From: a virus
Strand: one strand, 5' to 3'
DNA length: 35,336 nt
UHGV virus genome: UHGV-0373725
Below the pieces are notes generated by a model. That model saw nothing but the letters and a program-made list of their open reading frames with translations, had not been told where the DNA came from and did no database searches. Below, in pieces: positions 1 through 35,336 of this stretch. Position numbers and translations under genes: made by a program. Numbering within the stretch: the stretch's first letter is position 1; each line of letters starts with the position of its first letter.

Positions 1-54
1 TTAAAATCCCTCGGCGTTCGCGCTGTGCGGGTTCAAGTCCCGCTCCGGGTACCA
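1..54 (+). tRNA. tRNA-Leu, 3' portion only (anticodon loop to CCA end); 5' part lies left of the window; probable phage attachment site
   Basis: Sequence reads anticodon loop (tTAAaa, UAA anticodon), long class II variable arm, T-arm GCGGGTTCAAGTCCCGC, acceptor TCCGGGT and ACCA end; integrase gene directly adjacent. Confidence 0.75.
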
Positions 55-96
55 TTGGGATAAAGCAGAATAATCAAAGCAATAAGCAGTGTCGTG

Positions 97-121
97 AAAC
101 CACCTACGGGTGGTTTTTTTG
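97..121 (+). terminator. Intrinsic terminator-like hairpin plus T-run downstream of the tRNA
   Basis: AAACCACC-tac-GGGTGGTTT stem-loop followed by TTTTTTT. Confidence 0.5.
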
Positions 122-184
122 TATCTGAAACTCTCCTTTCCGAAGATGCGTCCGAAGATGATTTTTCAACGAACGCATAGCGAT

Positions 185-1201
185 TCATTTTTTCTGACCA
201 CCAACAACCGGCACAATTTTAGTTTTCCTGTCGTAAATCGCCGTTTGTCTCGAATTCTTATGGCCTGAAATCGCCTGTTTCTCCTCGAGGCTTCCTTCCA
301 GATCAGAGACACCTTTCGCTTTCAGATCGTGGAAAGTGAAATCTATCTGCAGGTGTGGGTTCTTTTCCTGCGCTGCGATTTTCGCGTCGCGCCAGCGTGA
401 ATTAAAACCGTCACGGGTGTATTTGCTGCCGCTGGTCTGGTGAATGACAAACAGGCTACGGATACCCGGCTTTAACGGCAGGGAACGGGCGAGGGCGACA
501 GCGGCGCGCAGGCGTGGCGACCATGCTTTGATTTGCTTCACGCCTGTTTTCCCCTGGCGGATAAAGATCCCGGTTTCGCGTATCTGGTCTTCAGTCAAAG
601 CCAGCACATCGCTTTGTCTGGCCAGACACAAATAAGCGATTTCCATGGTGGCGCGAACTACGTCTGGAGCAACATCGTAAACCGCTTTGTATTCTTCGTC
701 GGTGATGTAACGCTCCCGGGCTGCCTCTTTGAACTTCTTAACGCCCTGACAGGGATTATGCTGGACGTAACCCCGCTCATAACCCCAGCGGAATACCCGA
801 GAAAGAAAACTCTTTTCCCGGTTGGCCTGCGTTTTACTGGCCATGCCACGCTGATCCATATAGCGCCGGATGTGTTCCGGTTTAATTTTATCGGGGTTAA
901 CCTTCCCGAACACCGGCAACACTTTGCCTGCGTATTTCGTGTAGTCTTTGCGGGTTTCTGCCGCTAAATCCTGCCAGTCAGGGGAAGACATGAATTGATC
1001 GGCCAGAGCCTGAAACGTCTTGCGCTCGACTTCTTCTCCCATGGCTTTTTCATATGCCAGCCATACAGCTGATTGAGGCTCGGAGAGCGCACATAGCCTG
1101 ATAGCCTTGTTATCTTTATTCCTGAATTCATACGCCGCCTTACCGCGATACACGCGGGGCGGCATCCAGTTATCAGCGGGGTTCTTACGTTTTCCGGCCA
1201 T
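185..1201 (-). CDS. int: Phage integrase, tyrosine recombinase family
   Basis: 338-aa ORF; C-terminal half carries the R...H..R...Y catalytic pattern (ARQSD, HDLKAKG, HKNSRQTAIYDR); position beside the tRNA 3' end is typical of tRNA-targeting integrases. Confidence 0.9.
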   Translation of the reverse strand: MAGKRKNPADNWMPPRVYRGKAAYEFRNKDNKAIRLCALSEPQSAVWLAYEKAMGEEVERKTFQALADQFMSSPDWQDLAAETRKDYTKYAGKVLPVFGKVNPDKIKPEHIRRYMDQRGMASKTQANREKSFLSRVFRWGYERGYVQHNPCQGVKKFKEAARERYITDEEYKAVYDVAPDVVRATMEIAYLCLARQSDVLALTEDQIRETGIFIRQGKTGVKQIKAWSPRLRAAVALARSLPLKPGIRSLFVIHQTSGSKYTRDGFNSRWRDAKIAAQEKNPHLQIDFTFHDLKAKGVSDLEGSLEEKQAISGHKNSRQTAIYDRKTKIVPVVGGQKK

Positions 1202-1430
1202 TAAAGATAGCTCCGAAGTCTGGTTCTTCCTCCCGCACCGTCTCTTCCTGCTGGTTGCGGTATTTAATCGGGTTCAGGAAATGGCCCCACGTCGTTTTAG
1301 GATGGCCGTCTGCCCTTTCCATGAAAAAGACACCGGCCCGACGTAGCGCTTCACACTGCCTCGATTTAAGTGGGGTCCCCGTCAGTTCGATCATTTCCTC
1401 TCTGGTGATGATGTCGTGATCGTGTCTCAT
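1185..1430 (-). CDS. Putative excisionase / small DNA-binding protein
   Basis: 81-aa ORF immediately upstream of int with a 17-nt overlap; start codon sits in the conserved GAGGAAAGACC-ATG cassette; functional call is by position and size only. Confidence 0.45.
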   Translation of the reverse strand: MRHDHDIITREEMIELTGTPLKSRQCEALRRAGVFFMERADGHPKTTWGHFLNPIKYRNQQEETVREEEPDFGAIFNGRKT

Positions 1431-1441
1431 GGTCTTTCCTC
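1428..1441 (-). promoter_or_regulatory. Conserved translation-initiation cassette GAGGAAAGACC-ATG (variant lacking one A), at the excisionase-like gene
   Basis: Minus strand reads gctGAGGAAAGACCATG; same element recurs at 4541, 5102, 6609, 9249 and 17807. Confidence 0.6.
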
Positions 1442-1585
1442 AGCATGCCGGCTATCGCGTTGTCTGCCGTATCGCAAGCGCGTTGGATATCGGACTGGGT
1501 CAGAGTCCTCTTTCTAACGCTGGCTGATAGCCTGCCAATTTTGATATCGAAATCTGAAAGTAAAAGTGTGCCTGGTTGCCAACGT

Positions 1586-1624
1586 AGCATTGTGATCTCC
1601 GGTTCATAGGTAGATCACAATGCT
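1586..1624. repeat. Perfect 13-bp inverted repeat AGCATTGTGATCT / AGATCACAATGCT with a 13-nt spacer, intergenic
   Basis: Read directly; no flanking T-run on either strand, so it looks like a protein-binding site rather than a terminator. Confidence 0.7.
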
Positions 1625-1639
1625 AACGACAGTTGCGAG

Positions 1640-33622: not shown

Positions 33623-33892
33623 ATGACTTTCAGAGTGACGCAGACTATAGGGAAATCTATAGCATACCCAACGCTAGGTGTATGGATGCCACCAGAAGAT
33701 ACTTCGATTGAGGTTGAATACCAGGCTGTATCGTTAATATCGCTAAATAATGGAACAGCGACTGTTTCATTTAAAGTTAGCATTGATGGTTGTCTTTCCA
33801 GTGGGGAGCTTACCCATTCTTTTGTCTACTCTGGGTCTGGAAGCCCTCTTGAAGAGGCAGAGGAATCACTTAAAAGCAAACTCGTAATATAG
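33623..33892 (+). CDS. Hypothetical AT-rich small protein (89 aa) downstream of the tailspike
   Basis: ATG with GAGG Shine-Dalgarno; no signal peptide; composition matches the tailspike C-terminal cassette. Confidence 0.45.
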   Translation: MTFRVTQTIGKSIAYPTLGVWMPPEDTSIEVEYQAVSLISLNNGTATVSFKVSIDGCLSSGELTHSFVYSGSGSPLEEAEESLKSKLVI

Positions 33893-33902
33893 AATTTCAT
33901 TT

Positions 33903-33918
33903 AGTCAGGATTCCGACC
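33903..33918 (+). promoter_or_regulatory. Conserved late element AGTCAGGATTCCGACC, copy 4 (upstream of the lysis cassette)
   Basis: Same core and flank as copy 2. Confidence 0.6.
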
Positions 33919-33926
33919 TTAGCTTC

Positions 33927-33974
33927 GCCTTACCCTCGCATCATTCCACATAGTGATCCCCATGGGGGTAAGGC
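33927..33974 (+). promoter_or_regulatory. RNA stem-loop that sequesters the Shine-Dalgarno of the first holin start codon (sdi-like)
   Basis: 9-bp arms GCCTTACCC / GGGTAAGGC; right arm contains the TAAGG Shine-Dalgarno and abuts ATG 33975. Confidence 0.45.
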
Positions 33975-34205
33975 ATGCGAATGAAGAATTTACCGGATGT
34001 GGCGGCTGGCACGTCGTACATCACATCCACTGTCAGCGGGAGCTACTGGCTGCTGCAACTTCTCGATAAGGTAAGCCCCAGCCAGTGGGCGGCTATTGGC
34101 GTACTAGCCAGTATTGTTTTTGGGCTGCTTACCTACCTCACTAATTTGTATTTCAAAATCAAAGACGACCGGCGGAAGGCACAGGACTATGAGCAACAAA
34201 GCTAA
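33975..34205 (+). CDS. Pinholin, phage 21 S21-like, with Met-Arg-Met dual-start motif
   Basis: Close resemblance to S21 ([11 protein letters not shown]...[17 protein letters not shown]); two in-frame starts at 33975 and 33981. Confidence 0.85.
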
Positions 34206-34725
34206 GTTCAGCGCCGCTATGCTGGCGCTTCTGGCCGCCGGTGCATCTGCACCGGTACTGTTCGATCAGTTTATCAGCGAAAAAGAAGGTAACGCGCTGG
34301 TGGCCGTTGTTGACCCCGGCGGTGTGTGGTCATTGTGCCACGGAGTAACCGTTATAGATGGCAAGCGTGTCATTAAGGGCCAAAGAGCAACTGAGGAACA
34401 GTGCAGGAAGGTAAACGCCATTGAGCGTGATAAGGCGCTGGCCTGGGTAGAAAAGAATGTGCTCGTTTCTTTGACGCCGCCGCAGAAGGTCGGCATAGCC
34501 TCATTCTGCCCGTACAACATCGGGCCGGGTAAGTGCTTCCCCTCAACGTTCTATCGCAAGCTGAACGCAGGCGACCGTAAAGGTGCATGCGCGGAGATCC
34601 GGCGATGGGTGTTCGACGGAGGCCGGGATTGCCGACTGACCAAAGGCCAGAAGAATGGCTGCTACGGGCAGGTTGACCGCCGCGATCAGGAAAGCGCTTT
34701 GACGTGCTGGGGGCTGTACGAATGA
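34189..34725 (+). CDS. SAR endolysin (signal-anchor-release lysozyme, R21-like)
   Basis: N-terminal Gly/Ala-rich SAR segment ([19 protein letters not shown]) followed by lysozyme catalytic region ([22 protein letters not shown]); overlaps the holin 3' end in another frame. Confidence 0.85.
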
Positions 34726-35081
34726 ACGGAAAAACCAAACTGGTGATTGTTGGTGGCGTGCTGGCGGTATGCGCCGGGATTTACTGGGCGGGGTATCTGA
34801 AAGGCTGGTACGCACATTCAGAGCAAGTAAACAGCCAGGCTAAACAAAGGCTACCGAAGCAGGAAAAGGCAGTTGCCGCTGGTGAGCAGAAAGCAGCGAC
34901 GGCGAACGCCGAAGCCAAAGTGATTTACCGTACCGTTTATCGTGATGTGGTGAAATATGTCAATGACCCGAATCGTACTGTGTGCCAGTTTGATCCTGCT
35001 GCTGTGCAGCTGCGCCAACGAGCAATCGACGCGGCCAACGCCATCCCCGGATTTGATGAACCGACCGTGCAAGATAAGTAA
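34722..35081 (+). CDS. Rz-like inner-membrane spanin
   Basis: ATGA overlap with the endolysin stop; N-terminal transmembrane segment (LVIVGGVLAVCAGIYWAGY) then charged helical periplasmic domain. Confidence 0.6.
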   Translation: MNGKTKLVIVGGVLAVCAGIYWAGYLKGWYAHSEQVNSQAKQRLPKQEKAVAAGEQKAATANAEAKVIYRTVYRDVVKYVNDPNRTVCQFDPAAVQLRQRAIDAANAIPGFDEPTVQDK

Positions 35082-35196
35082 CGCTGGCGCAGATAGCGAC
35101 GCTGATCTGCTGGCGGATACACAGTCAGCAGAGTGTGTGCGGGAGTTACGTACGAATATCTACCGCTGGCAATCGTGGTACCGCGCGACTGAATAA
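34957..35196 (+). CDS. Rz1-like outer-membrane lipoprotein spanin, +1 frame, overlapping and extending past Rz
   Basis: Lipoprotein-like signal (IVLCASLILLLCSC), Pro-rich mature part (RPTPSPD); starts inside Rz and ends 115 nt beyond it. Confidence 0.5.
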   Translation: MSMTRIVLCASLILLLCSCANEQSTRPTPSPDLMNRPCKISNAGADSDADLLADTQSAECVRELRTNIYRWQSWYRATE

Positions 35197-35336
35197 ATAT
35201 TGAATTTGAGGTATGATAAGCGTCAGAAGATAGTCTAAAACATTGCTGTAACTTATTGTTTTCATGATGCTAGTTTATTAGCGTATGTTCGGTTTTTTTT
35301 CATATCTATTTGATATTTAGAATAATCACCACCAAT

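Follow-up and report, generated by a model that had tools for sequence, protein, structure and literature searches.

A temperate Klebsiella prophage with a lambdoid early half, a T7-supergroup virion module and a putative activator-dependent set of late promoters

The prophage and its closest described relatives

Temperate podoviruses of the T7 supergroup that encode no RNA polymerase (RNAP) are a known phage type, represented by epsilon15, BPP-1, the Yersinia enterocolitica phages YeP4, YeP5 and YeP6 (YeP4-6), and Piluca. Here, we describe the viral genome UHGV-0373725, a stretch of 35,336 bp (the window in what follows), which is one complete Klebsiella pneumoniae prophage reaching from attL to just before attR, and a common, previously undescribed Klebsiella representative of this type. 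The phage itself is ordinary. Of most interest are a candidate late-transcription kit borne by its virion module, that is, a protein of 98 amino acids (aa) with an XRE-type fold and a 16-bp palindromic promoter element, and a structured leader of the capsid mRNA. In the reading that we consider likely, the window is a complete temperate mosaic prophage without an RNAP of its own, whose late genes are expressed through the 98-aa protein acting as an activator at five promoters of the host RNAP.

The YeP phages (unclassified Caudoviricetes, MK733262-4) are temperate phages of ~35 kb, which were induced with mitomycin C and form short-tailed particles with heads of 52-58 nm (PMC6548840). They carry the same virion, packaging and lysis module as the window, in the same order, and YeP4 proteins share 82% (portal), 87% (capsid), 77% (gp12-like), 80% (large terminase, TerL), 65% (GNAT acetyltransferase) and 50% (98-aa protein) of their amino acids with those of the window. 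The same late element occurs in YeP4-6 upstream of the capsid and holin genes. In contrast, their early half is not lambdoid but belongs to the BPP-1/Xfas53/APSE type, encodes a DNA polymerase, a primase and a helicase of its own, and was likened by others to BPP-1, Xfas53, BcepC6B and APSE (PMC8579659); their integrase, integration site, tailspike C-terminus and internal proteins are different as well.

Piluca (Alcaligenes faecalis, MZ326864) is an isolated, plaque-forming phage of 35.5 kb, the architecture of which has already been described (PMC9022569). As in the window, an integrase, a CI/Cro switch and host-dependent replication genes are followed by a portal-to-ejection module that includes an acetyltransferase, with a T7/epsilon15-like tail plus an endolysin of the signal-arrest-release (SAR) type, and the portal, capsid and TerL proteins are 45%, 48% and 46% identical, respectively. 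However, Piluca is far more divergent than YeP4-6, has a class I holin and no spanins reported, and its homologue of the 98-aa protein is longer and encoded away from the portal operon; the palindrome was not found in it. The epsilon15-like (Uetakevirus) and BPP-1-like (Rauchvirus) phages are temperate, tRNA- or att-integrating podoviruses with a T7-supergroup portal and tail tube and without RNAP. Their portals are 27-29% identical to that of the window and a Bbp19-family protein is present, but the homology is distant only, and genome order and early regions differ; neither the element nor a homologue of the 98-aa protein was found in BPP-1. The published account of podovirus history that deals with PhiGT1 concerns the P22/LUZ24 lineage and not the group of YeP4 and Piluca.

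The window is built of two exchangeable halves, a lambdoid/Rac-like early half and a self-contained T7-supergroup half with virion and lysis genes. Such a mosaic had been proposed in the initial annotation, and it is upheld by the finding that each half has a relative of its own. The early module (window 1366-13939) is 84% identical in nucleotides (over 35% of the query) and 70-96% in amino acids to BUCT708 and BUCT709 (named as 'Stenotrophomonas' phages, vB_SmeS; OM816834/5), which share the part from a 74-aa open reading frame (ORF) through the Ref-like nuclease gene, with DnaB 96% and the endolysin 76% identical. Unlike the window, they lack the 98-aa regulator, and their portal and integrase are only 28% and 48% identical. 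The virion module (window 14095-33615) is 64-87% identical in amino acids to that of YeP4-6. Beyond the Ref-like gene, the similarity to BUCT708 breaks off, and the junction lies near 13940-14095, between the end of this gene (13939) and the start of the gene for the 98-aa protein (14095). A megablast search of phage records with the virion half returned only the capsid region of YeP4-6 and short endolysin matches.

A scan of one genome per species revealed 72 related loci, in Enterobacter, Pluralibacter, Trabulsiella, Serratia, Raoultella, Pectobacterium and Pantoea, as well as in Pseudomonas, Stenotrophomonas, Burkholderia, Acinetobacter and others. The module was confirmed as syntenic gene by gene (tblastn against YeP4, Piluca and the 72 genome loci), with the order regulator, small proteins, portal, Bbp19-family protein, scaffold, capsid, gp11, gp12, GNAT acetyltransferase, gp14-like protein, ejection proteins, small terminase (TerS) and TerL, spike, and lysis genes. 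Its virion genes recur in 53-74 loci, and the early genes of the window in only a handful of enteric ones.

When compared with T7 itself, the virion module appears as a remote member of the T7 supergroup and not as 'T7-family' proper. Direct matches to T7 were limited to TerL (32% identical to gp19 over 196 aa, E 2e-18 to 4e-19), the portal (phmmer against gp8, E 1.7e-9) and the fibre N-terminus (36% identical to gp17 over 89 aa, E 0.002-0.004); BLAST against T7 gp11 or gp12 gave no direct match, and the other virion genes are tied to T7 by profiles only. A tblastn search of 50,697 phage records with the portal (cutoff 1e-5) matched 262 of them, from Vibrio, Pelagibacter, Pseudomonas, Escherichia, Xanthomonas and other hosts. 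No T7-like phage was present among the 40 of these matches listed, a spread sample of the ranking, in which portal identity was 82% for YeP4-6, 45% for Piluca, ~33% for Vibrio and Pelagibacter phages, ~29% for epsilon15-like phages and 27% for BPP-1.

The T7-family signatures and T7-like gene order reported in the initial annotation hold, with qualifications. Portal, TerL, fibre adaptor and nozzle are supported by profiles, but at the level of the remote supergroup, and the comparison with protein databases confirmed the supergroup kinship while placing YeP4, Piluca, epsilon15 and BPP-1 closer than T7. The gp14-like protein matched PHROG 418 strongly, but the T7_gp14 family PF24072 with 20.8 bits only, below its cutoff of 27 bits. 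The likeness of the gp6.7-like protein to T7 gp6.7 is limited to an N-terminal MC.S.PK motif, size, composition and position upstream of the portal gene; PHROG 9015 was its sole family match. The order resembles that of T7 from the gp6.7-like gene through the internal proteins, with the tail tubular proteins A and B (gp11/gp12) encoded directly after the capsid gene, as in the T7 supergroup, but TerS and TerL precede the tailspike. The Klebsiella phage shares with T7 and other Autographiviridae the portal, tail tube A/B, TerL, fibre adaptor and probably the internal core proteins (in broad families and similar order), several dispersed, here predicted late promoters with one conserved sequence, and a capsid gene set between promoter and terminator. 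It differs from them in having neither RNAP nor DNA polymerase, in being temperate, and in sigma70-type -10 promoters. It does not belong to Autographiviridae: no single-subunit RNAP was found, genes lie on both strands, the replication genes comprise only an O-like initiator and DnaB, and an integrase and att site are present.

A conserved candidate promoter element, the 98-aa protein and the capsid leader

A repeat search of the window revealed five copies of a 16-bp near-palindrome with the consensus RGTCRGGAWWCYGACC. Its core pattern, GTCRGGAWWCYGAC, has five matches in the window against 0.00 expected, all of them on the plus strand and all upstream of groups of late genes (Table 1). In each case, a hexamer of the form NANNNT is located exactly 12 nt past the element. 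When distinct copies (62, drawn from 36 sources) were lined up by the element, 60 of them had A at position +14 and T at position +18 past it, and no alternative offset occurred in more than 7. Immediately 5' of the element, the sequence is A/T-rich over a short distance. The combination of A at -11 and T at -7 is the hallmark of a sigma70-type -10 hexamer. The occurrence of this signature at a fixed spacing therefore places the element at about -40 to -25, where it would stand in place of a -35 hexamer. In the window, the -10 hexamers are poor, no -35-like hexamer accompanies them, and consensus sigma70 promoters are not overrepresented in the late region. Promoters of the sigma54, sigma28, sigma32 and ECF types were considered and rejected, as the familiar consensus sequences of none of them fit a palindrome followed by A-N3-T at -11/-7.

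The first of the five predicted promoters overlaps the 3' end of the regulator gene and precedes the operon of the gp6.7-like and portal genes. The two strongest terminators of the late region bracket the capsid gene, so that its promoter-terminator arrangement echoes phi10/Tphi of T7, and the layout of the late promoters as a whole resembles that of the T7 class III promoters phi6.5, phi10/Tphi and phi17.

The element is kept in ~40 related prophages of Enterobacterales, Pseudomonas, Stenotrophomonas and Burkholderiales, as surveyed at two positions, just after the gene for the 98-aa protein and just before the capsid gene. Its central 4 nt vary (GATT, GAAA, GAAT, GATC). The form AGTCAGGATTCCGACC, in which A would pair against C mid-stem, makes up two of the five window copies (29067 and 33903) and recurs in YeP4 and in the related prophage of E. 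coli 23GD11002 (L001); another variant, GGTCGGGAAACCGAAC, sets G opposite A, and a variant site in one further locus (L049) reads GCCGAGATTTCGGC. The element was found neither in Piluca nor in the Acinetobacter branch, in which the capsid gene follows the scaffold gene with no intergenic promoter. No description of the element or of the regulator was found in the openly searchable literature, a scope outside which subscription journals lie.

The 98-aa protein had no match above cutoff in Pfam or NCBIfam and no significant sequence match in the PDB. Its AlphaFold (AF2) model, with a pLDDT of ~90 over residues 11-70, shows a four-helix XRE-type domain, which in Foldseek weakly (E 0.03-0.3) resembled P22 C2, Cro, the controller C proteins of restriction-modification systems, SinR and HipB. 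A homologue was found in 52 of the 74 related loci at E 1e-5 (53 at E 1e-3), and in YeP4. Of the genes that accompany the virion module, its gene alone is regulator-like, and in most loci the first element comes directly after it. Of the loci with enough upstream sequence, 35 had both protein and element, 18 had only the protein, 14 had neither of them, and none had only the element; several of the 18 protein-only loci hold a variant of the element with 3 mismatches. In some lineages, the half-sites have changed symmetrically, with two copies per genome (GCCGAGA/TTTCGGC, GGCGAGA/TTTCGCC and GACGGGA/TTCCGTC), while the N12-NANNNT layout is kept, and these variants coincide with a change of the recognition-helix motif from LGWK to TSWQ, KSWS or YGYV. 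A conserved C-terminal peptide of the protein, GRETD, corresponds to the translated first promoter element; it is missing from shorter homologues and falls within residues 79-98, which are modelled with low confidence (pLDDT for the most part under 50).

Other identities of the protein were rejected. The small terminase is better sought in a 113-aa ORF directly before TerL, as is gp18 in T7, and an origin as a sigma-factor fragment rested on Sigma70_r4 matches of E 0.02-0.04 over 19 residues. A zinc-finger-like 'transcriptional regulator' of 112 aa (11780-12118) was likewise rejected as the late regulator, since it belongs to the early half only and occurs in 4 loci.

The capsid mRNA has a leader of ~130 nt (18323-18454), which is kept from Klebsiella to the Pseudomonas, Stenotrophomonas and Burkholderiales prophages. 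A few nucleotides past the predicted start site, it opens with a hairpin of a 3-bp outer and a 5-bp inner stem, closed by a loop of the GUGG type and with A(U/C)A(C/A) bulging out on the 3' side. In 26 sequences, pairing was possible in 98.1% of cells against 77% in shuffled controls, the covariation score was 0.565 against 0.18 in shuffled and at most 0.127 in slid controls, and double changes were found in 46 cells against 15.8. A second, similar motif, identified by eye only, lies ~45 nt before the ribosome-binding site (RBS). No match to the window, including this leader, was found in Rfam at the gathering threshold. Stabilisation of the mRNA and a protein-binding site are possible roles of the leader.

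The initial annotation had noted no T7-type RNAP in view. In agreement with this, no such polymerase was found in any frame (best tblastn match of T7 gp1, E 0.19 over 43 aa), and every ORF of at least 300 aa was assigned to another family. Because the window is the whole element, we can say that none is encoded rather than that none is in view. The sequence ACGACTCACTA at 14391-14401 agrees in all of its 11 nt with the core of the T7 class III promoter (0.01 expected), lies exactly at the predicted start site of late promoter 1, and is kept in the closest relatives (L001 and L007). Since no phage polymerase is encoded, the match is probably due to chance, or else the leader sequence was retained for another reason.

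Table 1. Coordinates of genes, promoters and other sequence features in the window (35,336 bp).
Feature	Position	Strand	Remarks
att core, attL copy	1-122	+	matches annotated tRNA-Leu in E. coli locus L001; exact direct repeat in contig L080
Tyrosine integrase	185-1201	-	PF00589, PF22022
DUF4224 protein	1185-1430	-	PF13986, E 2.6e-14
Gp157-family protein	1827-2393	-	PF05565
716-aa exonuclease-family protein, RecE-like centre	2393-4543	-	PHROG 2489 'exonuclease', E 0
GAGGAAAGACCAATG copies	4541-4555, 4958-4972, 5102-5116	-	
GAGGAAAGACCAATG copies	6609-6623, 9249-9263, 17807-17821	+	
XRE/HTH_3 immunity repressor, 137 aa	5412-5825	-	PF01381, E 4.6e-16
Cro	5894-6091	+	PF14549 P22_Cro, E 2.2e-21; divergent from repressor
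YdaT-family protein	6154-6600	+	PF06254, E 3e-21
O-like initiator	6845-7837	+	PHROGs 428/9773/345, replication initiation O-like
DnaB-type helicase	7834-9222	+	PF03796, PF00772
Accessory early-right region, nin-like	9261-13939	+	includes theta-like protein
MT-A70 methylase	10330-10920	+	accessory early-right region
Two HNH endonucleases	11150-11767, 13147-13644	+	accessory early-right region
DUF1367	12561-13157	+	accessory early-right region
Ref/RecA-dependent nuclease-like protein	13538-13939	+	last gene before module junction
98-aa XRE-fold helix-turn-helix protein	14095-14391	+	first gene of virion module; candidate late regulator
Late promoter 1 (predicted)	14356-14389	+	GGTCGGGAAACTGACC (14356-14371), 12 nt, CACAAT (14384-14389)
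146-aa protein	starts 14419	+	first of portal operon 14419-17785; gene calls in L075
gp6.7-like protein, 73 aa	14870-15091	+	PHROG 9015 (unknown function)
Portal	15095-16720	+	PF12236, E 1e-122, full length
Bbp19-family protein	16717-16950	+	PF25181
Scaffold	16937-17785	+	PHROG 3742
N4 gp49/Sf6 gp66-family protein	17819-18235	+	PF13876, E 1.8e-33
Terminator-like hairpin	18256-18282	+	directly before late promoter 2
Late promoter 2 (predicted)	18289-18322	+	GGTCGGGATTCCGACC (18289-18304), 12 nt, AACAAT (18317-18322); before capsid gene
Structured capsid-mRNA leader	18334-18425	+	hairpin 18334-18360; second motif ~18405-18425
Major capsid protein	18455-19360	+	PF19821, E 8.5e-70; PHROG 3437
Terminator-like hairpin, strong	19377-19396	+	just after capsid gene
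Tail tubular gp11-like	19420-19983	+	PHROG 394, E 3e-60
gp12/nozzle-like	19983-21974	+	PHROG 376, E 1e-220; PF25675, 32.9 bits vs cutoff 27
GNAT acetyltransferase	21974-22426	+	PF00583; in slot of T7 gp13
gp14-like	22429-22917	+	PHROG 418 'internal virion protein', E 1.5e-41
903-aa protein, SLT transglycosylase domain	22923-25634	+	PF01464; PHROG 1044
967-aa gp16-like protein	25634-28537	+	PHROG 342 'internal virion protein'
144-aa protein, signal-peptide-like N-terminus	28542-28976	-	PHROG 8772, unknown function
Late promoter 3 (predicted)	29067-29100	+	AGTCAGGATTCCGACC, 12 nt, CATCAT; before TerS candidate/TerL
Small-terminase candidate, 113 aa	29130-29471	+	by position, directly before TerL
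Large terminase TerL, T7-type	29468-31078	+	PHROG 38, E 1.5e-84; PF22530 (T7 RNaseH-like domain), 28.4 bits vs 27
Late promoter 4 (predicted)	31000-31033	+	GGTCGGGATTCCGACC, 12 nt, GAACAT; inside TerL 3' end, before tailspike
Tailspike	31096-33615	+	gp17-type N-terminal adaptor PF03906, E 3e-11; PHROG 22560
89-aa ORF	33623-33892	+	just after tailspike
Late promoter 5 (predicted)	33903-33936	+	AGTCAGGATTCCGACC, 12 nt, TACCCT; before lysis cassette
Phage-21-type holin	33975-34205	+	PF04971 (P21 holin S), E 1.8e-30, full-length match
SAR-type lysozyme (predicted SAR)	34186-34725	+	PF00959, E 6e-20
Rz	34704-35081	+	PHROG 2536
Rz1 lipoprotein (lipobox) ORF overlapping Rz	34957-35196	+	read from sequence

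How the late genes may be switched on

In the proposed mechanism, early rightward transcription from the Cro-side promoter would reach the gene for the 98-aa protein, making it the last product of the early operon. A dimer of the protein would then bind the element at -40 to -25, replacing the -35 hexamer at the five promoters, each of which would retain a weak sigma70-type -10, and the bound protein would recruit host RNAP to the portal operon and to the capsid, terminase, tailspike and lysis genes. The initial annotation had suggested that host polymerase transcribes the late genes, possibly through a conserved element, and the anatomy of the promoters fits this suggestion; binding of the 98-aa protein to the element, and its action as an activator instead of a repressor or antiterminator, are inferred.

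Activators whose site takes the place of -35 are known, as in the case of PhoB, λ cII and T4 MotA, and so are late activators encoded at the junction of early and late genes, such as C/Mor of Mu, Ogr of P2, and RinA, LtrC and ArpU of phages of Gram-positive bacteria. The system proposed here is similar to such dedicated late activators in that a small DNA-binding protein is encoded just upstream of the morphogenesis genes and that the promoters have a -10 but no -35, with the site at or next to the -35 position. It is different in that no sequence relationship to them was detected, the fold is of the XRE type, and the site is a 16-bp near-palindrome centred at about -32.5.

Several observations weigh against activation by the 98-aa protein, or against parts of it. 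A site centred at -32.5 overlaps the position of sigma region 4, so that activation would need a geometry like that of PhoB, cII or MotA, and an operator placed there more commonly represses. The family of the protein, PHROG 16553, is labelled 'transcriptional repressor', and the weak Foldseek and insignificant PDB matches bear on its assignment as a regulator. The Acinetobacter/Piluca branch has a longer homologue but no recognisable element. Both the co-occurrence and the covariation of helix and half-site are uncorrected for shared ancestry and rest on 2-3 lineages. In Pseudomonas relatives, a strong terminator lies ~20 nt past the first -10, which is more typical of antitermination; in nine loci (L019-L024, L033, L042 and L044), it has the form GCCCCGC-loop-GCGGGGC with a T run, ~20-45 nt past the first -10 and before the next gene. 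Finally, the intactness of the genome is read from its ORFs and from relatives.

The terminator past the first promoter of the Pseudomonas relatives would fit a role of the 98-aa protein as a processive antiterminator like Q, which would load onto host RNAP at the palindrome beside the -10 and carry it through terminators further downstream. The λ Q gene lies at the junction of early and late genes, just upstream of PR', and the regulator gene is placed likewise, directly upstream of its site; moreover, the late region of the window contains terminator-like hairpins of its own, on either side of the capsid gene. However, one loading site would do for an antiterminator, whereas five are dispersed before the gene groups, no -35-like hexamer would make these promoters constitutive as PR' is, the first copy in the window has no terminator after it, and the protein is unlike the Q families and half their size. 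We regard antitermination as unlikely. A repressor that holds or times late promoters activated from elsewhere would fit the label of the PHROG, a fold like that of P22 C2, Cro, SinR and HipB, and a dimer site at -40 to -25, the classical position of a repressor. Yet promoters without a -35 match and with -10s as poor as those of the window (CACAAT, AACAAT, CATCAT, GAACAT and TACCCT) are not likely to be active on their own, nothing but the palindrome is conserved upstream, and across unrelated early regions the module is accompanied by no other regulator; nor is there an obvious role for a repressor gene placed last in an early lytic operon. We therefore hold repression to be highly improbable.

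The element could also act not as a binding site but as an RNA or DNA hairpin (GGUCGG-loop-CCGACC) in processing, stability or pausing, since changes in its two arms are symmetric and look compensatory in several lineages and its central 4 nt vary as a loop would. But the recurrent variants AGTCAGGATTCCGACC (A/C) and GGTCGGGAAACCGAAC (G/A) break the stem, and the A-N3-T at a fixed 12 nt (60 of 62 copies) puts the element upstream of the likely start, outside its own transcript, which leaves this possibility barely credible.

Returning to activation by the 98-aa protein, we give about even chances to the broader proposal that the protein and the palindrome that replaces -35 make up a portable late-transcription kit, accompanied by the covarying capsid leader without an Rfam family. 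Such a kit would have been retained by the module in both Gamma- and Betaproteobacteria and next to two or more unrelated types of early region, the lambdoid one and the BPP-1-like one of YeP4; this comparison of early regions covers the Klebsiella phage, several enteric prophages and YeP4. If the proposal is true, the module is plug-compatible with any phage backbone that depends on host RNAP, the kit is in function the host-polymerase counterpart of the T7 RNAP/promoter pair, and the 98-aa protein may contact sigma region 4 in an unusual way or replace it. The kit offers a testable answer to how T7 relatives without RNAP turn on their late genes, bears on whether the Autographiviridae lifestyle arose by gain or by loss of a phage polymerase, and could yield a compact, orthogonal activator/promoter pair. 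As each half of the genome has its own living relative, the phage is also a clean example of module exchange at a defined point.

Integration, intactness and the remaining genes

The first 122 nt of the window are repeated exactly right after its end, in a contig (L080) that is 100% identical to window 31096-35336. Because this exact repeat lies directly past its end, the window is the whole prophage unit. Thus, the att repeat that was to be sought at the right end is located immediately outside the window, within which no att repeat of at least 12 nt was found. Integration at a tRNA, as claimed earlier, was also confirmed. Comparison with the annotated E. coli locus (L001) identified nt 1-54 as the 3' part of tRNA-Leu(UAA), leuZ, from the anticodon loop onward, and nt 55-122 as its downstream flank with a terminator hairpin; in E. 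coli, leuZ is the last gene of the glyW-cysT-leuZ cluster. ARAGORN found no tRNA in the window, because the window opens inside the tRNA gene and holds its 3' fragment only. The phage is inserted into the 3' end of leuZ, and its own att copy restores the tRNA gene. In the same contig, which comes from a metagenome, the right att copy is followed by the host genes for a DHDPS-family protein, yecA and tyrP, and the related prophage of E. coli 23GD11002, the integrase of which is 98% identical and uses the same insertion site, is placed between the leuZ tRNA and yecA. The attR of that prophage opens with the first bases of the window, preceded by bases like its last; when compared with attR, the tRNA copy at its attL has a compensatory change, T...A, in the T-stem.

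Proteins identical to the portal, capsid and tailspike of the window are entries of K. pneumoniae, found on 43-44 contigs, which in several assemblies are of ~35.1 kb, near the unit length. The 90% protein clusters have 409 and 513 members, which come from Klebsiella, Serratia, Citrobacter and Raoultella. No gene is visibly broken and the lysis set is complete. From these ORFs and from its relatives, the genome is apparently that of an intact temperate podovirus, and the Klebsiella phage would be expected to form particles. That the region is instead a defective remnant, no longer able to do so, we consider distinctly unlikely. In favour of a remnant, the repressor has no recognisable autocleavage domain, a feature that bears on the route of induction. 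Against this, both att copies are undamaged and agree exactly over their 122 nt, the virion, packaging and lysis genes are all uninterrupted, identical proteins recur on the many contigs just mentioned, and the YeP4-6 virion module (64-87% identical) yields particles. The E. coli relative forms a contrast, as it does hold an IS110-family insertion (ISEc20), which together with a DUF2971 gene occupies positions 24221-25417 of L001, in the accessory early region.

A fixed part of the virion module is the GNAT gene, which is flanked by the gp12-like gene and the gp14-like one and was found in 53 of 74 loci as well as in YeP4 and Piluca, and the gene of the N4 gp49/Sf6 gp66 family is a sporadic insert (12 of 74 loci). 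The SLT domain is carried by the second of the three internal/ejection proteins. The 144-aa and 89-aa genes, which interrupt the late region and gave no tblastn match in the related loci, are candidate morons. The C-terminal part of the tailspike is Klebsiella-specific, as its 90% cluster consists of Klebsiella entries only, and the spike is probably capsule-specific.

The lysis cassette had been described as of the phage 21 type, and the assignment of its holin to the S21 family was confirmed by PF04971. The lysozyme has a predicted SAR-type N-terminus, an Ala/Gly-rich, weakly hydrophobic segment, and an E-x8-D-x5-S/T motif, both read from the sequence, and Rz and Rz1 are present. As in phage 21, with its pinholin S21 and SAR endolysin R21, the holin is of family PF04971, its C-terminal two-thirds being near the S21 pattern, and Rz/Rz1 accompany it; unlike in phage 21, the cassette is located at the far right, after the tailspike, with a predicted late promoter of its own and not behind a Q-dependent PR'.

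The early half has the switch, replication and integration features of a lambdoid phage, namely a repressor facing a P22_Cro protein, an O-like initiator with DnaB, and an integrase with the DUF4224 protein by the att site; the latter is, by position only, an excisionase candidate. Of the early genes named in the initial annotation, integrase, XRE repressor, Cro, YdaT and DnaB were recovered by profiles, but the YdaS likeness was weak (28.4 bits for Cro, under the 30-bit cutoff). No peptidase domain was found in the 137-aa repressor, which looks non-cleavable, and the 716-aa protein has a weak match to exodeoxyribonuclease VIII (NF007259) over residues 165-362. Instead of the single lambdoid late promoter before the lysis genes, five dispersed late promoters are predicted, and the lysis genes come last. 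No match to the N or Q antitermination families was obtained among the ORFs scanned (Pfam, PHROG and NCBIfam; for a few small ones, e.g. 10923-11153, Pfam only).

Between the early-left genes and the repressor, ~500 nt (window 4912-5412) contain no convincing ORF, but three CGGTCTTTCCCGGCTGTCA-like repeats (at 5070, 5192 and 5242) and, on each strand, a terminator-like hairpin rich in GC. Peptides or small RNAs that belong to the immunity region may be encoded here. A 15-nt block of RBS and start codon, GAGGAAAGACCAATG, occurs in six copies (one with 1 mismatch) against 0 expected. It heads early-left and early-right genes and the sporadic gp49/66-family insert within the virion module, is also present in an Enterobacter locus (L003), and may serve as a common signal for translation or, at the boundaries of genes, as a linker for recombination.

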